This document shows, one piece after another, positions 3,535 through 64,000 of a stretch of DNA of 64,000 bases (its first letter is position 1; each line of letters opens with the position of its first letter). The stretch is from positions 832,001-896,000 of the forward strand of contig CBDCRW010000004.1 in NCBI GenBank assembly GCA_965221125.1, read 5' to 3'. The notes under the pieces are model-generated. The model did not search any database, was not told where the DNA came from, and worked only from the letters and a program-made list of their open reading frames with translations. Position numbers and translations under genes: made by a program. Origin of the DNA: Alphaproteobacteria bacterium (GTDB lineage Bacteria > Pseudomonadota > Alphaproteobacteria > UBA828).

Positions 3535-4932
3535 TCAGTTGCCGGTGAGCAGGCGGTCCACCAGCTGGCGCACGGACGGGATGAAGCGGTTCGAGTAGAA
3601 GGGGTCGTCCGCGAACCTGAACGCCGCGTGGCCGGCGAACATGAGCTGGTTCTCGATGTCCTCGCCGTGGATGATCTCCTGCAGCGTCTTCTGGATGCAG
3701 TAGCTGCGGGGGTCGGTCTTCTTGCCGGTCGAGCCCGTCTCGTTGGTCGCCCAGTTGCTGAAGCGGCAGGCGCTGAGGCAGCCCATGCAGGCCGCCTGGT
3801 CGGCCCTGATTTCGCGCGCCTTCTCGTCGGTCACGAAGATGATCGTGGTGTCGGGGGTCTTCAGCACCGAGGTGAAGCCCTCGTCCATCCACTCCTCGGC
3901 CCGCACCAGATCGCCCCCGGTCAGCCAGAAGCTGCGCTCGCGCGGGCCGGGCGTGAATTTCCGATCGTGGTCGCCGATGGGCTCGGCGGTATAGGCCACC
4001 TGGCGCTGCTCGCGCTCGGCGAGCTCGTGGATGAAGGCGTTGCGCACGGCGGACGAGTAGAATCCGGTCGGGCTAAAGCGGTTCAGGTTGACGTCCCCTT
4101 CCTTCATCGTCAGCAGCTTGCGCTTCCACGTTTCGGAGATGGGGCTTTCCTCGGTCACCAGCGGGCGGGTGCCGAACTGAAAGACGACGGGGCCGATCTC
4201 GGGATTGTCGAGCCAGTCCTCCCAGTCGCGCAGGTACCAGACCCCGCCCGCCATCACGATGGGCACGTCGTCGAGGCCGTACTCGTTCATCTGCTTGCGC
4301 AAGGCGGCGACCCGCGGATAGGCGGGCTCGGGCTGTTCGGGATCCTCGCTGTTGGAAAGCCCGTTGTGGCCGCCGGCGCGCCAGGGGTCCTCGTAGACCA
4401 CGCCGCCCATCCACTCGGAGAAGCGATGGTAGGCGCGCTTCCAGAGCGCGCGGAACGCCCGCGCCGACGAGATGATCGGGTAGTAGTGGACCTCGTACTG
4501 CGCGGACACCTCGGCGAGCCGGTAGGGCATCCCGGCGCCGCAGGTCACGCCGTGAATGAGGCCGCGCGTGGCTTCGAGGACGCCGTGCAGGATGCGCTCG
4601 GCGGCGGCCATCTCCCACAGCACGTTCATGTGGAGCCGGCCCTCGCCGCCCGAGACGTCGTGGGCGATCCGGGCCTGCGTGATGCCGCCCCGGATCGCGT
4701 AGTCGACGAGCTCCTCGTGGCGCTCCTTTCGCGTACGCCCGCGATAGACCTGCGGGACGGCACGGCCCTTCTCGTCGTAGGAGTCGGCGTTGACGCCGGA
4801 GAAGGTGCCGACGCCGCCGGCGGCGGCCCAGGCGCCCGAGCTCAGGCCGTTGGTCACGCCGATGCCCTTGCCCCCTTCGATCAGGGGCAGAACTTCGCGA
4901 CCCGACAACCTGATTGCGTTCAACGCCTTCAT
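3535..4932 (-). CDS. Nitronate monooxygenase-family (2-nitropropane dioxygenase-like) flavin oxidoreductase
   Basis: PLIEGGKGIG, CGAGMP, AGGHNG, MAGG and QFGTR motifs; CMGCLSAC Cys cluster near the C-terminus. Confidence 0.85.
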   Translation of the reverse strand: MKALNAIRLSGREVLPLIEGGKGIGVTNGLSSGAWAAAGGVGTFSGVNADSYDEKGRAVPQVYRGRTRKERHEELVDYAIRGGITQARIAHDVSGGEGRLHMNVLWEMAAAERILHGVLEATRGLIHGVTCGAGMPYRLAEVSAQYEVHYYPIISSARAFRALWKRAYHRFSEWMGGVVYEDPWRAGGHNGLSNSEDPEQPEPAYPRVAALRKQMNEYGLDDVPIVMAGGVWYLRDWEDWLDNPEIGPVVFQFGTRPLVTEESPISETWKRKLLTMKEGDVNLNRFSPTGFYSSAVRNAFIHELAEREQRQVAYTAEPIGDHDRKFTPGPRERSFWLTGGDLVRAEEWMDEGFTSVLKTPDTTIIFVTDEKAREIRADQAACMGCLSACRFSNWATNETGSTGKKTDPRSYCIQKTLQEIIHGEDIENQLMFAGHAAFRFADDPFYSNRFIPSVRQLVDRLLTGN

Positions 4933-57133: not shown

Positions 57134-57472
57134 CTATCCGATCACGCCGGACCGATGCGCGCCGGTGAGAGTCCGATCGGAATTGCGATCGGCACGGGGG
57201 GCGTCCGGATAGAACTGCCTGCAATAGCGCCGATACTTGCCGATGGGACCGTCGGAACGACACAAGCGCGGACGGCGCCTGTAGCTCTTTTGCTGCCAGA
57301 TTACGACGTCCTGAAGAACATCCTTCTCCTGCATGGACATTATGATCCTGTTCATGGTCCTGGTGCGCAATCCAACCGGCAGGAACCGGAGCCCGGCGAT
57401 CGCACGTCTCGGCTTTCGCAGTTGCCGAAGCTGCGAGACCAGAACCAGCTCGATGAGCGTGCCATCCACTGG
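57134..57472 (-). pseudogene. Rieske oxygenase (KshA/Neverland-type), 3' fragment
   Basis: PVDGTLIELVL...QDVVIWQQKSY..PRLCRSDGPIGKYRRYCRQFY, resembling the KshA C-terminus; in frame with 62094-62604 once the transposon is removed. Confidence 0.85.
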
Positions 57473-57877
57473 TGTTGTTTCGCACGTTATTTGACGCCGA
57501 ATCTCCCAGATTATTTGACGTGATCGCTGCCCTGATTTCCCAGATTGCTCGGTCTTTTCCGGATCGAAGCGTAGGAGCTCATGGTCTCTGCGGGCGGTCC
57601 GGGGTCGCTGTCTGATTGAGGTTTGGACTGGTGCTTGAGGAGAGCTGACGAGGTGTCGCGCGGCCGTCGGCGCGTCAAGCGGCTGCGCCGCTCCTGCGCT
57701 TCGCTTCGGCCCTTCGGGTGACTCGCCACCGTCCACACGACGAAGTGCTGCCATGGCCTGAAGCAAGCTTCCGGCCACGGACTGGCCGCTCACCTGACGT
57801 AGTATCCCGGTGGAGGCGCAGCGCCTTCCGGACCGTTGGGGAAGGGTGGTTCCCGACGGCGGTTCCGGCTCGAACCC

Positions 57878-58918
57878 CTAGGCGTTGGCGGAACCGGGCT
57901 CCGGGAACCGCGGGGCCTGCGGCCGACTGCTGCCGTTGGCGGCGGCGGCCGCCGCCCGCTTGTCCGCTGCGCCTGCGACGACGCTGTAGCCGCCCTCGGC
58001 GTTGCGCGCGACGCGACCCTCCTGGACGAGCTTTTGCAAGATTACGCCGACGGTCTTGTGCCGGGTCGCGGCGCGTTCCCGGATCTGGCGTTGCGAGAGC
58101 GGCGCCCCGGCGTCGGCGAGCGCCTTGAGAACGCGGCATTCGGGTGTTTCGGGCTGAGGCGCCCCGCCGCCGGCCGTGGGCGGCTGGCGCAGCCGGAAGG
58201 AGGGCTCCTCTCCGTCTTCCTTGAGCTCGATCTCGATGTCGTCGAGACCGCGTGCGGCGCGATGCTCGACGGTCATGAGGGTCTGCCGGTCCCGGCGGCG
58301 CAGGTAGAGGTTCGAGTCCCCCCAGGCGTGCAGCTCACTGCTGCCCCGCAGGGCCTGCCCCGGCCTCGTGGCCCCGCTCTTGCGGGCGTGGTGGACGAGG
58401 AGGACGGCGGTCTCGAAGCGGCGTTGCAGGTCGCGCAGGAAGCCGAGGATCGGGGCGACGTCCGCAACCGTGTTCTCGTCCACGCCGTGCAGGCGGACCA
58501 GGGGGTCGAGGACCACGAGGCGCGGTGCGATGCGCTCCACGGTCTGCTGCAGGCGGCGGCGGTCGTCGAGATGGTCGAGGCGCAGTGTGGGCACGTCGAT
58601 GACGGCGATGTCGAGGGTCTCGAAGCGGGCGCCTGCGGCGCGGGCGATCCCCTGCAGGCGCTTGCGCACGAGGTGGCCGGCGTCTTCTGCGGCGAACAGC
58701 AGGACCGGGCCAGGCCGGGCCGGGGCGAAGTGCCGCAGGCATGGGACGCCGGCGGCGACTGCGACCGCGAGGTCCAGCGCCAGGATGGACTTGCCGCACT
58801 TCGGCTCGCCGCCGACGATGCCGACGGCCTGCTCGCCCCATAGCGTGTCCACCAGCCATTGCTGCTCGCGCGGCCGCTCCTCCAGCTCGATCGGGGCGCG
58901 GGTCGGGAAGCCGGTCAT
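57878..58918 (-). CDS. AAA_25 / RepA-like RecA-fold helicase-ATPase with C-terminal winged helix
   Basis: WLVDTLW, Walker A GGEPKCGKS, AAED, LVVLDPL, DEN, LLVHHARK, RGSS; C-terminal PLSQRQIRER..VGVILQKLVQEGRV; ATGA overlap with the ExeA stop. Confidence 0.82.
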   Translation of the reverse strand: MTGFPTRAPIELEERPREQQWLVDTLWGEQAVGIVGGEPKCGKSILALDLAVAVAAGVPCLRHFAPARPGPVLLFAAEDAGHLVRKRLQGIARAAGARFETLDIAVIDVPTLRLDHLDDRRRLQQTVERIAPRLVVLDPLVRLHGVDENTVADVAPILGFLRDLQRRFETAVLLVHHARKSGATRPGQALRGSSELHAWGDSNLYLRRRDRQTLMTVEHRAARGLDDIEIELKEDGEEPSFRLRQPPTAGGGAPQPETPECRVLKALADAGAPLSQRQIRERAATRHKTVGVILQKLVQEGRVARNAEGGYSVVAGAADKRAAAAAANGSSRPQAPRFPEPGSANA

Positions 58919-59715
58919 GGCCGCAGTTCCTCGAGCGCGTGCTGCAGGTGGTCGGCACTGACGGTCCTCGCCTCGTCGAGAGCGGCGGCGGAGAGCGCGT
59001 AGTGGGCGATGCGGTTGATCTGGCGCGGCAGGCCGCGCGCGCCCTGGAACAGGGCCTCGACGGCGGGCTCTTCGAACAGCGGCAGTTCGCATCCCGCGAG
59101 CCTGAGGCGGTGCTTGATGTAAGCGTCGACCTCGTCGCGGTCGAGACCGCTCAGGTGGTGGCGGACGACGAGGCGCTGGCTGAGGGATTCGTGCATGGCC
59201 ATGGCCAGGCGGCGCCTGAGCTCGGTCAGACCGACGAGGACGAGGCACAGGCGCTGCTCTGCATCCATGGCGAAGTTGGTGAGCAGGCGCAGGTCCTCAA
59301 GGACGTCGTTGCGCAGATGATGGGCCTCGTCGATGACGAGGACCGGCAGCTGCTTGGCCTCGGTGACGAGGCGGGAGATCTCGTTTCGGATGGCCTGATA
59401 GGCCGAGGCGCGGGAGCGCTCGATGGGCAGGCCGATCTCCCACGCGATCGCCTTGTACATGTCGAGCACGTTGCCCGTGGTCAGCGAGACGTAGTGGACC
59501 CGGTAGAGGCCTGGATGAAGCTGCGCGGTCAGATGCCGGCACACGGTGGTCTTGCCGGAGCCCACCTCGCCGGTGAGCAGGCCGATGCCGCGCAGGTCGA
59601 TGAGGTGGCCGAGCCTGGCCTCGGCCTCGCGGCGCGCGTTGGACTCGAACAGCTCGTCGGTCTCTGCCGGGGTCTCGAAGGGCAGGCGGGTGAAGGCGAA
59701 GTGGCGCAGGTACAT
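58915..59715 (-). CDS. ExeA-family AAA+ ATPase (transposition regulator)
   Basis: YLRHF.F..PF, GEVGSGKTT, VIDEAHHL, LVLVG, GLPRQIN; TGATG coupling to the transposase. Confidence 0.9.
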   Translation of the reverse strand: MYLRHFAFTRLPFETPAETDELFESNARREAEARLGHLIDLRGIGLLTGEVGSGKTTVCRHLTAQLHPGLYRVHYVSLTTGNVLDMYKAIAWEIGLPIERSRASAYQAIRNEISRLVTEAKQLPVLVIDEAHHLRNDVLEDLRLLTNFAMDAEQRLCLVLVGLTELRRRLAMAMHESLSQRLVVRHHLSGLDRDEVDAYIKHRLRLAGCELPLFEEPAVEALFQGARGLPRQINRIAHYALSAAALDEARTVSADHLQHALEELRP

Positions 59716-61043
59716 CACTCGTCCTCCTTCTTGTCCTTGAGGTTGCGCATGGCCAGCGGCGAGGGCGGAGGCTCGGGCGCCGGATCTTCGGCCTCGATCT
59801 CCCTGGCCGGGTAGGTGCGCCTGACGGCGGTATTGGCGTAGGCGTCGAGAGGGCTGGCCTTGCCGGCCGGCTTGCCGTCATGGACCACGTCGAGAGGGCG
59901 CGAGGGCGGCGCGGCCGGGTCGTAGCGCAGGATGACGTTCTGACCCACCAGGAGGGCGTCGACCTCGTAGACGCGGCCGTTCAGACTAACGGTGCGGTCC
60001 TTGTAGACACGGCGCCTGGCCTCGAAGAGGAACAGATCGTCGAGGTCCATGGTGGCGTCGGGATAGCGCACGCCGGCCGAGGCCAGCGCCCACTGCTCAA
60101 GCGGGGTGCGCCCCTCGTCGAGGCCACGATGCGGGCTGTTGTGATACTCCCCCTCGATCCAGGCCCAGAGGCTGCGGTTGAGCGCCTCCAGGCTGTCGAC
60201 GTCATCGCCGAGGTGGCGGAGCCAGCCGGCCCGGAGGGTGCGGAAGAAGCGCTCGATCTTACCCTTTCCCGCTGGCTGGAACGCCCTTGCGTGAATCAAC
60301 GCAACGCCGAGCCTGGCGCAGACCAGGGAGAGATGACGGGAGCGGTAGGCGCTTCCGTTGTCGACGTACAAGCGGGCCGGGAGGCCGCGCCGGATCAGCG
60401 CGTCCTTGAACACCGGCAGGAACGCCGCAGTGTTCTCCGCCATGGCGAAGGCGGCGAACGGGATGACGCGGGTGGCGTCGTCGATGAAGGCGATCAGGTA
60501 GGTCTTGCGCCGGGTTCGGCCGTGCCGGACCTTGGGTCCGTGCATGACGTCGCTCATCCACATCTCGCCGGCATGCCGGAAGGCGAAGCGGCGGCGATCC
60601 GCCCCGTCGGGCGGCTTCTTGTCGAACAGGCCCTCGCGGCTGAAGAGGCGGTGCACGGTGGACGAGGCGAGCGGGTGGTCGATACCCTCCTCCTTGACCT
60701 TCTGGATGATGGCGCGAACCGACAATGCGTCGTTCTCGGTCTTCAGCGCGATGAGGCGCTCGGCGACCTCGGGCGGCAGCCGCCGGGGCTTCCCCCGGTC
60801 GGTGCGGGGCTTGGGGTAGAGCGCGTCGAAGCCGCCGTAGCGGTAGTCCTTGATCCAGCGCCGCATGGTCTCGGCGGCGACCCGGGTCCTGGTGGTTCCG
60901 GGGATCGTGTAGGTCTTCTCGGCTTTGGCGCGCATCATCGCGCCGGCACCCGGTGCACCCACGGGCAGATGCACCAGATCGGCGATGACGTCGTATCGGA
61001 AGAGCGCGATCTGTTGGCGAAGGTCGTCGTCTGAGCTGTTCAT
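59715..61043 (-). CDS. DDE integrase/transposase with Mu-like C-terminal domain
   Basis: HTH (TMRRWIKDY..GGFDALYPK.R.D), WMSD, YVDNGSAY, KGKIERFF, YHNSPHRGL, RRVYKDRTVSLNG. Confidence 0.93.
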   Translation of the reverse strand: MNSSDDDLRQQIALFRYDVIADLVHLPVGAPGAGAMMRAKAEKTYTIPGTTRTRVAAETMRRWIKDYRYGGFDALYPKPRTDRGKPRRLPPEVAERLIALKTENDALSVRAIIQKVKEEGIDHPLASSTVHRLFSREGLFDKKPPDGADRRRFAFRHAGEMWMSDVMHGPKVRHGRTRRKTYLIAFIDDATRVIPFAAFAMAENTAAFLPVFKDALIRRGLPARLYVDNGSAYRSRHLSLVCARLGVALIHARAFQPAGKGKIERFFRTLRAGWLRHLGDDVDSLEALNRSLWAWIEGEYHNSPHRGLDEGRTPLEQWALASAGVRYPDATMDLDDLFLFEARRRVYKDRTVSLNGRVYEVDALLVGQNVILRYDPAAPPSRPLDVVHDGKPAGKASPLDAYANTAVRRTYPAREIEAEDPAPEPPPSPLAMRNLKDKKEDE

Positions 61044-61088
61044 GGTGCGATCCTCGTTCAGGGACTCCCTGGCCCCGGGATCGTCACG

Positions 61089-61724
61089 CTACGAACTCTC
61101 CGGCGGCGGGTCCGGCCCCGCCCGTTGTTGGAACTGCGGTTTGCGATTCCCCACGTCGATGCCGTGGGGTTGGAAGCCCAGAGGCGCGGGTAGCGTCCGG
61201 AGCTGCCCGGCGACCAGGCCGCGCAGTTCCATCAACGCGCTGTCGCTCTTCAGACGCTCGCGCACCGCGCTCATGGTGGGCGCGCAGCCCGCGAGCAGGT
61301 CGGGGATCAGGCCGATGACGCGCACAAGCGCGTCGTGCACAAGCTTCAGCCTGCGGCGGATCCAACGCACGGCGCCGGGAAGCTCGATGGCGTCCTCGTC
61401 CTCGGGGCAGCGCACCTCGTCCGCTGCCTCCTCCAGGCTGCCGGCCTCCTCCGCCACGACAACAACCGCTTCCAGCGCATCGAGCGTGCCCGGCAGCCGC
61501 GCCGCCAGACAGTCGGCCAGCAGGCCGATGGTCGTATGGCTCTCACGGCAATACCAGCGAGGAACCCTTGCGCCGGGCGGGGTCTTCCGCTCGTAGGTGC
61601 CGTGGCTTGCCACAGAACATCCGCCGTGCGGGTGATTCGGGCAGCGCTCAAGCCTTGCGTCGCGCCACGCCTCGGTCTTAACGTATTCCTCGCTGGTGAG
61701 CCCCGTTTCGTAGCGAAGCTGCAC
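61089..61724 (-). CDS. Cys/His-rich transposon helper protein (DUF6431-like)
   Basis: CPNHPHGGC..HGTYER..RWYCRESHTTIGLL.DC; first gene of the transposon operon. Confidence 0.6.
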   Translation of the reverse strand: MQLRYETGLTSEEYVKTEAWRDARLERCPNHPHGGCSVASHGTYERKTPPGARVPRWYCRESHTTIGLLADCLAARLPGTLDALEAVVVVAEEAGSLEEAADEVRCPEDEDAIELPGAVRWIRRRLKLVHDALVRVIGLIPDLLAGCAPTMSAVRERLKSDSALMELRGLVAGQLRTLPAPLGFQPHGIDVGNRKPQFQQRAGPDPPPESS

Positions 61725-61813
61725 CGGCCCTGGCCCGGCGGGAGTTCCGTCCCCCGGGCCTCTCTTTGTCGTTCAGTGAGAGGCCAAGATTACGGACGCT
61801 CCCCGCCGCCGCC

Positions 61814-61947
61814 AAGCTGTGGAGCCGTGGACGCGTCCTGCGGACCGATCGGCGTCCTGCGGACCGTGTGGACAGCCCGTGGACAAGCTGGCGCTTGCCC
61901 ACCGCCTGACCACACTCGCCGATCTCGCGCCCACCGCTCCACAGCTT
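61814..61947. other. Long nested hairpin in the transposon leader
   Basis: AAGCTGTGGAGCCGTGGACGCG / CGCGCCCACCGCTCCACAGCTT outer arms; inner GTGTGGACAGCCCGTGGACAAGC / GCTTGCCCACCGCCTGACCACAC. Confidence 0.7.
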
Positions 61948-62093
61948 CAACAGCAATGAGGATTCTGCTGAGGATCAAAAAAATGCCGCAGGCAGCGTCC
62001 TTCCCGCACTCGGCCACCATCCCGGGAAATCCACCAACCAATCAAAGTGAGAAAAAAACCCGTGCTTCTATCCGGCTAGACCGGAAAACAACA

Positions 62094-62604
62094 ACTGGCG
62101 TGGCAAGGACCCACAGACGCGTGTCCATTCCTATCGAGTGTTCGCGGACATCGACGTACGAGTAACCCAGCCCATGGACGTGTGTGATGGCTGAAACATC
62201 GTAGTGAACATCGGCGAGACCGGCGATGCGCCAGCGACGCCGGAAGTTGAAGCAACTCACGAGATGCGCGCCGTCTACGGTGGCTGTTCCAACAGCTTCC
62301 ACATTGTCGTAGCCGTGAACGTACCGCAGGTGCGCCAAGTCTACCGAGTTCTCCGTCGTCTCCTGAGGATGGCCGGCGAATCGGAAGGTCCGAGTTTCCA
62401 TGCCGCTCCACTCGCCTCCGCCCTCCGGCCCTTTCGGAAGGTCCCATTGCGGCGGGCGTCCATCGATGCCCCACCAGGCGAAAACCAGGCCGGCAATCTC
62501 CCGTGTCTCGAAGACGTTCAGCCTTGTGGACTTGGGCGGCTCAGCAAAGGGAGTCGCGACACAAGCACCGGCGGCATTGTAGGCGAAGCCGTGAAAGGGA
62601 CAGA
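62094..62604 (-). pseudogene. Rieske oxygenase (KshA/Neverland-type), middle fragment
   Basis: CPFHGFAYNAAGACVATP (Rieske CxxH), GLVFAWW, ENSVDLAHLRYVHG (mononuclear Fe site), LWVLATP; 5' part cut off by IS256. Confidence 0.88.
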
Positions 62605-64000
62605 GGTTGTGTCCCCAGACGTGGTGTAGGAGCTCCCGCTACCCCCGGTAGCTGTGGGTAACCGGCTTGGCGCCGCGACCGCCCTCGAGTCTGGTGGCGC
62701 CAAGCCGGTTATCCACAGCGGGGTGGCCATCGCGGTTCCGGTTTAGGGTTTGGGTGAATCCGAATCGACCCGAGCCTAAGGAGAACCACGATGACCGATG
62801 ACAAGCTTACCCTGCGGACGCTGTTGGAGAAGAGCTCTGACGCCGATCTGCTGCGTGAGATGATCGCCTTCTCTGCGCAGCGCCTTATGGAGCTGGAAGT
62901 CGAGGGCCTGACCGGCGCCGAGCATGGCGCGCGGACGCCGGAGCGGATCAACCAGCGCAACGGCTACCGCGATCGGCCTTGGGAGACCCGGGCCGGCACG
63001 GTCGACCTGAAGATTCCGAAGCTCAGGAAGGGGAGCTACTTCCCCGGCTTCCTGGAGCCCCGACGGACGGCGGAGAAGGCGCTCACGGCGGTGATCCAGG
63101 AGGCCTACATCCAGGGGGTATCGACCCGCTCGGTCGACGAACTGGTTCAGGCCATGGGCATGAGCGGGATATCGAAGAGCCAGGTCTCGCGCCTTTGCGG
63201 GGAGATAGACGACAAGATCCGCAGCTTCCTCGACCGCCCGCTCGAAGGCGACTGGCCCTATCTCTGGCTGGATGCGACTTACGTGAAGGTGCGCGAGGCC
63301 GGGCGCATCGTCCCGGTCGCGGTCACCGTGGCCGTCGCGGTCAACGACCAGGGCCGGCGCGAGATCCTCGGCATGGCGATCGGCGCCTCCGAGGCCGAGA
63401 CCTTCTGGACCGAGTTCCTGCGCTCGCTGACCAGGCGCGGCCTGCGCGGCGTGCAGCTGGTGATCTCCGACGACCACAAGGGCCTGAAGGCCGCCACCAC
63501 CCGGATCCTCGGCGCCACCTGGCAGAGATGCCGCGTCCACTTCATGCGCAACCTGCTGGCCCATGCCGGCAAGCAGGGCCGGCGCGTCGTCTCCGCCTTC
63601 GTCGCCACCGCCTTCGCCCAGGACGATGCCGAGGCCGCTGCCGCCCAGTGGCGCCTGATCGCCGACCAGCTCAGGCCCAAGGCCTCCAAGCTGGCGGCCC
63701 TCATGGACGAGGCCCAGCACGACGTCCTCGCCTACATGAGCTTCCCCAAGGAGCACCGGGTCAAGCTTCACTCGACCAACCCGCTCGAACGCGTCAACGG
63801 CGAGATCAAGCGACGCACCAACGTCGTCGGCATCTTCCCCAACGAGGACGCCATCACCCGCCTCGTCGGCGCCGTGCTGCTCGAGCAGAACGACGAATGG
63901 ACCGTCGGAAGGAGGTACATGACGCTGGAATCGATCGCTCCCCTGAGCGACAATCCCACGATCAAGCTGTCCGCTGTGGCAGCCTGAATAACCCGGCCCT
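62605..64000 (+). mobile_element. IS256-family insertion sequence (right end beyond window)
   Basis: Probable left IR GGTTGTGTCCCCAGACGTGGTGTA begins exactly where Rieske homology stops; transposase 62791-63987. Confidence 0.85.
62791..63987 (+). CDS. IS256-family (mutator-type) transposase
   Basis: [58 protein letters not shown]. Confidence 0.96.

Follow-up and report, generated by a model that had tools for sequence, protein, structure and literature searches.

What might a replicative-type helicase be doing as the last gene of a transposon? The question is raised by a window, meaning the whole stretch of DNA that we analysed, of 64,000 nt from an Alphaproteobacteria bacterium (UBA828; assembly GCA_965221125.1, contig CBDCRW010000004.1, positions 832,001-896,000 of the forward strand). 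It contains a 4621-bp transposon with genes for a Cys/His-rich protein, a DDE transposase, an AAA_22 ATPase and an AAA_25 protein with a winged helix. As modelled, the product of this fourth gene folds as a hexameric-helicase core of the DnaB/RepA type joined to a winged helix. Our answer, to which we give a probability of roughly 40%, is that the helicase acts in the DNA synthesis of copy-type transposition, so that the assembly of the fork would be encoded by the element itself.

An autonomous transposon in twenty identical copies

The transposon occurs in 20 copies at 100% identity in its own 4.58-Mb genome (BLAST), of which it makes up about 2% (20 x 4.6 kb). Seventeen copies are intact, and each of the 17 full-length alignments starts exactly at base 1 and ends exactly at base 4621; each of the other three is split by an insertion of about 1.45 kb, an insertion sequence of the IS256 family. 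The inverted repeat of the window element is only 8 bp long and alone is not significant, and inverted repeats of 12-24 bp are found in lineages of related genomes. It is the 17 identical copies with the same end points that prove the boundaries, independently of this weak repeat. Fifteen of the 20 copies are flanked by an exact 5-bp duplication, two by one of 4 bp and one by 5 bp with a single mismatch, and two have reciprocal flanks. A previous reading of the window made from its letters (the sequence-only reading) had described the TGTTGTTT and AAACAACA ends, the ACTGG duplication and the four-gene order, all of which are confirmed at the positions listed in Table 1. It had also called the boundaries firm and the jump probably recent, as the identity of the 20 copies and the exact alignment of their ends bear out.

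Most copies are simple insertions in which the target-site duplications are intact, and numerous identical copies of this kind are what copy-type transposition predicts. The element is an autonomous DDE transposon that has recently been proliferating. The pair with reciprocal flanks (GAGGG/CCCCG and CCCCG/GAGGG; G000 C4:671960-676580 and C4:716887-721507) is inverted and lies 45 kb apart; the swapped flanks indicate an inversion of the segment between both copies, and either recombination between the two or a single intramolecular replicative transposition would leave this same pattern.

The four open reading frames (ORFs) are co-oriented. A TGATG overlap comprises the transposase stop and the ATPase start, and an ATGA overlap the ATPase stop and the AAA_25 start; a 597-aa database protein (P0004) that contains AAA_22 and AAA_25 together is probably a fusion called across the ATGA overlap. 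The transposase scores 169 bits against phrog_310, a family of Mu-like phage transposases. The ATPase gives 104 bits with phrog_296 ("DNA transposition protein") and 168.6 bits, below the cut-off, with TIGR03015 (ExeA/GspA-type). AAA+ partners of the MuB/IstB/TnsC type capture target DNA in the systems that have been studied. The Cys/His-rich protein has no Pfam match, even at E 10, and a profile of it from six copies of the window's kind of element (class 1, below) matched DUF6431 proteins with a probability of 95.7% (hhalign, E 9.2e-9). Contigs of two RNA libraries (X17 and X18) overlap parts of relatives of all four genes, which is not proof of transcription.

The sequence-only reading had placed the element with Mu, Tn7 and Tn5053, a membership that our comparisons do not bear out. 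MuA/MuB of Mu, TnsB/TnsC of Tn7 and TniA/TniB of Tn5053 do have in common with it an rve domain followed by a Mu C-terminal barrel, an AAA+ partner, TG..CA ends and a 5-bp duplication. However, TnsA, TniQ/TnsD/TnsE, a resolvase and phage genes are all absent from its four ORFs, and therefore it is not a member of these families. The Tn7 TnsB and TnsC models match the window proteins weakly (27 and 16.5 bits), and the element differs from Tn5053/Tn402 in having neither TniQ nor a resolvase and in an ATPase that reaches 20.8 bits on the TniB model, below the cut-off of 22.4. The best NCBIfam family of the transposase is IS481 (201.9 bits, below the cut-off of 224), although the window element, unlike that family, has four genes. 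With IS21 (IstA and IstB) it shares the two-component plan of a DDE transposase and an AAA+ ATPase, but its ATPase is of the AAA_22 and not the IstB_IS21 type, and the IS21 model gives its transposase no more than 43 bits.

One helicase cassette behind several transposition ATPases

The identification of the AAA_25 protein as RepA-like, already made in the sequence-only reading, holds. The protein matches Pfam AAA_25 with 127 bits, followed by a sub-threshold MarR_2 winged helix, and a PDB sequence search found RSF1010 RepA (1g8y, E 1.8e-10), with which all of the RepA motifs align (PAEDP/AAEDA, LMVLDTL/LVVLDPL, HHASK/HHARK and RGSS). The helicase motifs (Walker A/B and RepA H1a, H3 and H4) are invariant across eight lineages; conservation is lowest in the winged-helix region. 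An AlphaFold (AF2) model reached a pLDDT of 89.5 with a 71-sequence alignment, as against only 50.9 with eight sequences; DnaB, RSF1010 RepA (TM over target 0.69-0.73) and RadA were its top Foldseek matches, with E about 1e-10 for DnaB and RepA. PHROG matches are to the helicase parts of phage primase-helicases, and within the genus a prophage primase-helicase (Zn_Ribbon_Prim and AAA_25) is homologous to the protein at 30% identity. The protein has in common with RSF1010 RepA, DnaB and the phage primase-helicases a RecA-type core with all RepA motifs and, in some lineages, a Toprim primase-like partner. It differs from them in its C-terminal winged helix, in having no DnaB N-terminal or primase domain, and in that its gene belongs to a DDE transposon and not to the replicon of a plasmid or phage. 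Half of the clusters nearest to the helicase family are viral; relatives on viral contigs are only 21-30% identical. The helicase had no tblastn match in 72,556 plasmid records (1e-15), no match in phage records at 1e-8 and none among the defence-system models of PADLOC, nor did the element DNA match any plasmid record.

Of 20 other genomes of the genus, 10 contain the helicase gene, which has multiple copies in sister genomes; none of 40 genomes searched outside the genus contains it. Its carriers in these genomes are of two classes. Class 1, the window's kind, has TGTTGT ends and measures 4.39-4.62 kb. Class 2 has TGAGCG ends, measures 4.4-5.2 kb and has its own zinc-ribbon ORF, a transposase of 505-523 aa and an AAA_22 ATPase of 277 aa. 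Between the classes the transposases are about 26% identical, the ATPases about 28% and the helicases 69-79%. DNA homology between them is limited to nt 165-1451 of the element, that is, the helicase ORF and about 240 nt downstream, and it ends exactly at the helicase start codon; identity is 73-77% in the 240-nt stretch and 76-78% in the coding part. In a tree of 47 helicase sequences with a midpoint root only, the class-1 helicases form one clade (SH-aLRT 99) nested among those of class 2. This position suggests a single capture of the cassette by class 1 from class 2, and transfer probably ran in that direction. Taken together with the IS21-like loci described below, these comparisons showed that the helicase gene and the 240 nt downstream of it act as one discrete cassette, which lies directly behind the transposition ATPase of class 1, class 2 and IS21-like backbones.

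The nearest named backbone is that of Tn6049 of Cupriavidus metallidurans, a 3.5-kb element with 12 copies, each with an ATPase gene, gspA (PMC2864759); its inverted repeats, 12 bp long, are imperfect, and its duplication measures 4 bp (PMC4739549); the passages cited from these two papers give no mechanism for it. The class-2 transposase of the sister genomes is 48.7% identical to the transposase annotated as IS481 family on pMOL28 and pMOL30 of C. metallidurans CH34, loci that we equate with Tn6049 copies by matching the records to the papers. Tn6049 is present also on P. aeruginosa pHS87a. Its gene order is a small ORF, a transposase, an AAA ATPase and a 71-aa ORF, and its small ORF, aligned with class-2 orfA, gave a DUF6431 match of 94.2%. 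The window element has the same succession of a small zinc-ribbon ORF, a DDE transposase and a GspA/ExeA-type ATPase, with the ATPase gene directly 3' of the transposase gene and the DUF6431-like gene upstream, and likewise short TG-initiated inverted repeats, a duplication of 4-5 bp and many copies per genome. It differs in size, in a class-1 transposase only distantly related to that of class 2, which is the class near to Tn6049, and in its fourth gene, where a 347-aa helicase takes the place of the Tn6049-type ORF. In a broad sense the window element belongs to the Tn6049-type transposons. Plasmid records contain many further triplets of DUF6431, DDE (IS481-family) and AAA ATPase genes, in Cupriavidus (C. 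necator), Streptomyces, Geobacillus and Acidithiobacillus; their transposases, 35-40% identical to the window's, are its nearest annotated relatives.

What stood in the fourth position before the helicase is indicated by a sister genome with two class-1 copies that have no helicase (L158; 85% DNA identity to the window element over the shared backbone, from the start codon of the helicase onwards to the opposite end). Instead they contain a 73-aa ORF, ATGA-coupled to the ATPase gene, and a clean 5-bp duplication flanks one of them. The 73-aa ORF is a homologue of the ORF of 65-71 aa found after the ATPase gene in Tn6049 and the plasmid triplets. From this homology the ancestral plan would be four genes with a small last one, which was replaced by the helicase cassette. 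Across Proteobacteria the usual fourth ORF of Tn6049-type elements is a conserved one of about 65-75 aa with the motif LSDEAA..Y..Q.RRY..PF. The sequence-only reading had the helicase in a "target-selector position", but relatives hold an ORF of about 70 aa there and not TniQ. A further gene may accompany the helicase: one with Toprim_2 and DUF3991 domains follows it in 20 of the 91 loci classified, and in a variant whose transposase is 53% identical to that of class 1, the Toprim gene alone occupies the fourth slot. A PDB search brought up no sequence relative of the Toprim protein.

The association is a lasting one. In class 1, helicase and transposase copies match in the present genome (20/20) and in three sister genomes (30/30, 9/9 and 1/1); a fourth has the helicase in four of six copies, the other two being the helicase-less sibling. 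The class-2 counts are 12/12 and 16/16, a matching from which the genome with 37 class-2 transposase copies was left out. Among helicase loci 65-99% identical, on contigs from one genome per species, an AAA_22 gene lies directly upstream in 79 of 80; the exception (L121) has an IstB-like gene there, which may be an unrelated IS21 insertion. Within class 1, selection on the helicase resembles that on the transposase, with ratios of nonsynonymous to synonymous substitution (dN/dS) of 0.21-0.31 for the helicase and 0.18-0.38 for the transposase; the ratio is 0.18-0.23 for the ATPase and 0.32-0.44 for the first gene, and dS is similar across all four.

More distant relatives give a similar picture. 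A profile search returned 730 representative clusters of the helicase family at E <= 1e-30, and distant full-length representatives, 33-52% identical to the window protein, were the queries of a metagenome scan. The best 80 of 588 relatives were kept, with helicases 48-57% identical to the window's; 59 of these loci had at least 900 nt upstream and 21 were too short upstream. A transposition ATPase gene is located directly upstream of the helicase in all 59 judgeable loci. It is a class-2-like (Tn6049-like) AAA_22 gene in 54, of which 51 also have the transposase; the ATPase ranges over 46-58% identity and the transposase mostly over 46-54%. These parallel identities, down to about 50%, indicate that helicase, ATPase and transposase diverged in step. 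In the other five loci, all checked by tblastn, an IstB gene lies directly upstream. Two of them were scanned with Pfam and contain IstA (rve and Mu-transpos_C_2) and IstB (248-258 bits), and a 49-55% identical AAA_25-winged-helix gene comes directly after IstB in the IS21-like loci. In these IS21-type carriers (L220 93-3866, L225, L228 936-4871, L182 and L184) it is the third or fourth gene, preceded, where the contig reaches, by a small ORF, IstA and IstB. Classical IS21 is not known to have a third gene.

Retention of the helicase with such transposons over long evolutionary time suggests that it helps the element to copy itself. The idea that it is a core component, raised in the sequence-only reading, is thus supported by its co-divergence with the backbone and by the matching copy counts, but close relatives without AAA_25 exist. 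As for novelty, which that reading had suggested with reserve, the backbone is already known, as Tn6049 by name and as IS21 by family; the open-access literature, which was the scope of our search, yielded no description of a helicase-bearing form of Tn6049- or IS21-type elements, and the passages seen of two Tn7 survey papers mention no such helicase module. Within that literature, then, it is the helicase-bearing form that is new.

What the helicase may contribute to transposition

In the mechanism that we favour, the transposase would join the 3' ends of the element, and a fork would have to be built at the element end, a need that would hold for a strand-transfer intermediate as well as for a copy-out intermediate in the style of IS3/IS21. 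Rather than depend on the restart primosome of its host, the element would provide a replicative helicase of its own, positioned by the winged helix, the AAA+ ATPase or both, and the Toprim/DUF3991 primase-like partner would join in some lineages. IstB, the ATPase of the IS21 backbone, is a DnaC-like protein. A role in DNA synthesis is suggested by the replicative type of the helicase, with phage primase-helicases as its nearest kin, by the repeated gain of a primase-like partner, and by a position that is always behind the AAA+ ATPase. It is suggested also by an element that has neither TnsA nor a resolvase and yet is found as simple insertions in many identical copies. The same helicase accompanies three unrelated backbones, which argues for a generic DNA-level function over that of a specific protein adaptor.

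Several observations weigh against this proposal. Hexamer formation, helicase activity and DNA binding by the winged helix are predictions from sequence and models, and the sequencing runs consisted of contigs, in which circles, starts and ends do not show. The pair of copies with reciprocal flanks is explained by ordinary recombination as well as by replicative inversion, and the hairpin described below could be just a terminator. The helicase-less sibling, with its clean duplication, is mobile, and AAA_25 is accordingly not indispensable in cis, although four helicase-bearing copies in the sibling's genome could act in trans. Tn6049 reaches 12 copies with no helicase (PMC2864759), and where plasmids carry transposases 35-40% identical to that of class 1, the fourth slot is occupied by other genes.

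These last points would also suit a passenger gene. The fourth slot would then hold variable cargo, and the cassette would be selfish or useful to the host, for example as a gene taken from a phage or plasmid replication module or by interfering with other mobile elements, with no role in transposition. The slot does hold an ORF of about 70 aa, a serine protease gene or hypothetical genes in relatives, the helicase-less sibling has a proper duplication, Tn6049 multiplies without a helicase, and the cassette has moved between backbones as a unit; half of the clusters nearest to it are viral. However, cargo is rarely kept in every copy of bursts of 9-37 copies across several genomes, and its divergence is rarely in step with that of transposase and ATPase, as seen here down to about 50% identity. 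Nor would cargo be expected to turn up behind three unrelated types of ATPase at one and the same place, where it is often translationally coupled. The dN/dS of the helicase equals that of the core genes, PADLOC recognized no defence function, and a benefit to the host hardly explains twenty helicase copies per genome. We therefore consider a passenger role unlikely.

A role in target choice was also considered, in which the helicase with its winged helix, as an adaptor like TnsE or TniQ, would steer the machinery to forks, gaps, single-stranded or mobile DNA. Its gene adjoins that of the target-capture ATPase, and in Tn7 and Tn5053 the selector genes are kept right after the gene for that ATPase. 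Moreover, DnaB/RadA-type proteins bind single-stranded or branched DNA, according to the titles of the Foldseek hits, and the winged helix is predicted to bind DNA. The insertions tell a different story. The 20 sites are nearly random, with no site specificity beyond a weak CCNGG preference, the orientation of the 20 copies has no bias relative to local GC skew (11 vs 9), and the insertions fall in ordinary genes. The absence of site specificity argues against a selector like TnsD, and the target-selection role suggested in the sequence-only reading is not supported by this comparison. A near-identical cassette that works with ATPases about 28% identical and with IstB is also awkward for a specific adaptor. 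Altogether, targeting seems an improbable function for this protein.

The non-coding DNA of the element bears on two further possibilities. Near the ends are short subterminal repeats, and a GATTTCCC(A/G)G motif is inverted between both element ends; the repeats at 57487..57543 are presumed to be transposase-binding sites. At the stop codon of the helicase gene, or just past it, a hairpin of paired hexamers is present in 12 of 12 lineages folded (the window, L033, L034, L089, L036, L090, L115, L039, L136, L150, L128 and L117). Its hexamers vary by lineage (GGTTCC/GGAACC, GTTACC/GGTAAC or GTTCCC/GGGAAC) with the pairing kept, and the z-scores of the fold range from +1.05 to -3.5, below -1.8 in 7 of the 12. 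It may be a binding array or a loading site rather than a plain terminator. The 240-nt stretch of the cassette has no conserved ORF, no Rfam match above chance, no tRNA and a fold z-score of 0.41, and its role may be that of a terminator, of an array bound by the winged helix or of a loading site for the helicase. A scan for promoter and terminator consensus sequences gave nothing useful.

The protein might be a regulator or immunity factor, whose winged helix would bind the hexamer array or the element ends and whose ATPase would tune expression of the transposase or block insertion close to copies already present. A palindrome whose sequence shifts while its architecture is kept, together with a winged helix that is less conserved than the rest of the protein, is as expected of a co-evolving pair of protein and site, and the non-coding stretch travels with the helicase gene. 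But invariant helicase motifs and a DnaB/RepA fold exceed what a repressor needs, the recurrent primase-like partner does not fit regulation, and a copy that lies beside or within another element (L149) implies that any immunity is not strict. Regulation as the main function appears quite improbable on this evidence.

The same arrangement of a gene and an adjacent, conserved, non-coding repeat array resembles a rep-ori pair, of which RepA/oriV of RSF1010 is an example. The cassette could accordingly be a minimal replicon, with an excised circle replicating as a transient plasmid before reinsertion or transfer. Relatives with 97-99% AAA_25 identity in other metagenome-assembled genome (MAG) records, and the presence of the element in records with other-phylum titles, suggest ready horizontal spread. 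In run X1, however, contigs of the element have a depth of about 390-400 and its flanks one of 17-22, and although depths are no copy number, this ratio is close to the 20 chromosomal copies and gives no sign of many free ones. No contig in four runs joins both element ends or spans an empty site, in assemblies where circles cannot show. The failure of the helicase to match any of the plasmid records by tblastn is a further point against an episome, as is the lack of a polymerase or partition gene in the element. An episomal phase is the least probable of the alternatives, and fork assembly by the element remains the reading that we prefer.

Neighbouring features, distribution and meaning

The positions of the element's genes and sites, and of its neighbours, are given in Table 1. 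The transposon lies in a gene for a KshA-like Rieske oxygenase, and its excision in silico yields one continuous KshA_C frame of 292 codons from stop to stop. The sequence-only reading had its removal restore an uninterrupted Rieske frame of about 843 nt. The frame is indeed continuous, but it is a remnant: even without the transposon the gene would not be intact, as an element of the IS256 family cuts off its N-terminal Rieske part at 62605. This family (about 1.45 kb, duplications of about 8 bp, 14 near-full copies in the genome) also provides the insertions that split transposon copies, at G000 C5:758404-759851, C6:194952-196404 and C7:276233-277685. Its presence inside the oxygenase gene and in three copies of the transposon indicates that two element families have been active in turn.

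Table 1. Features of the transposon and its surroundings; positions refer to the window, except for the loci named in the last row.
Feature	Position	Strand or end	Remarks
Whole transposon	57473..62093	minus (gene direction)	4621 bp; copies align from base 1 to base 4621
Terminal inverted repeat TGTTGTTT	57473..57480	AAA_25-proximal end	TGTTGTYT in class-1 lineages
Terminal inverted repeat AAACAACA	62086..62093		
Left target-site duplication, ACTGG	57468..57472		5 bp
Right target-site duplication, ACTGG	62094..62098		
Cys/His-rich protein, 211 aa	61089..61724	minus	divergent zinc ribbon of DUF6431 type; profile-profile match
DDE transposase, 442 aa	59715..61043	minus	HTH_32, rve and Mu-transpos_C (Pfam)
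AAA_22 ATPase, 266-267 aa	58915..59715 (or 59718)	minus	GspA/ExeA-, MuB/TnsC-like; Pfam AAA_22 95 bits
AAA_25 and winged-helix protein, 347 aa	57878..58921	minus	predicted helicase core ~1-245, winged helix ~260-315
Conserved non-coding stretch, ~240 nt	57637..57877	minus	travels with AAA_25 gene; inter-class DNA homology
Hairpin/palindrome	57848..57909	minus	paired hexamers GGTTCC x2 / GGAACC x2; centred on AAA_25 stop codon
Subterminal repeats TTATTTGACG x2	57487-57496, 57511-57520	helicase end	conserved in class-1 alignment
Subterminal motif GATTTCCCAG	57534-57543		recurs inverted near other end
Inverted copy of subterminal motif GATTTCCCGG	62022..62031		conserved in class-1 alignment
Lineage-specific insert, ~147 bp	61812..61958	promoter-side non-coding	22-nt inverted repeat and short direct repeats
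Second lineage-specific insert, ~85 bp	57556-57640	other non-coding end	
KshA-like Rieske oxygenase, 3' part, disrupted	57134..57472	minus	KshA_C profile positions 157-207
KshA-like oxygenase, 5' remnant	62099..62604	minus	KshA_C positions 2-124; itself truncated by next element
IS256-family insertion sequence	62605..64000	plus	separate from transposon; runs off window; Transposase_mut 407 bits
Small fourth ORF in related loci	L158 5900-6121; L156 6357-6572; L157 6266-6481; L152 7161-7358; L155 7089-7286		

The window element is about 230 bp longer than its relatives owing to two lineage-specific inserts, the larger of which is absent from three other class-1 lineages. We considered whether the two inserts are separate miniature elements and rejected this, as they are present only inside the 20 copies.

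The records that contain close relatives of the element are for the most part MAGs under the title "Alphaproteobacteria bacterium"; a few bear the names of other phyla. A class-1 copy at 91% DNA identity with a CCGAG duplication (L074 4819-9309) lies on a 442-kb contig of a MAG titled Dehalococcoidia, and short contigs titled Poribacteria, Acidobacteria, Gemmatimonadota, Chloroflexota and Acidimicrobiales contain relatives. Such records reflect either transfer across phyla or binning error. Apart from the best holders, set aside as a possible source, the runs with 50-69% of the element's sampled words have the labels sponge metagenome (three studies), marine metagenome (one) and a coded organism B (one), and hundreds of metagenome loci contain relatives of the helicase family. 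The 5.8-Mb sister genome G009 has 30 class-1 and 37 class-2 transposase copies which, at 4.4 kb each, come to about 5% of its DNA. The abundance of the family bears on annotation and on genome plasticity in these bacteria.

Finally, we suggest, more tentatively than for the role of the helicase in DNA synthesis, that these elements form an undescribed, widespread class of DDE transposon that is partly self-replicating. Tn6049-like, class-1 and IS21-like elements would share a portable "fork module", made up of the winged-helix helicase of DnaB/RepA type and a hairpin/repeat site in cis, to which a Toprim primase is sometimes added. The AAA+ target-capture ATPase of the transposon would load the helicase onto the intermediate of transposition, as DnaC loads DnaB. 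If this is true, a self-built fork, independent of host restart proteins, would explain the bursts of 20-67 copies, and if the mechanism holds, the class would be functionally new. Recruitment of replication by copy-type DDE transposons is known mainly from phage Mu, for which host restart proteins do the work. A helicase, in some lineages with a primase-like partner, behind a MuB/IstB-type ATPase would be a compact natural system for the handover from transposition complex to replisome, and such elements could reveal whether an ATPase of the IstB/DnaC type can load a helicase. The exchange of the cassette between unrelated backbones is itself a clean case of modular transposon evolution.

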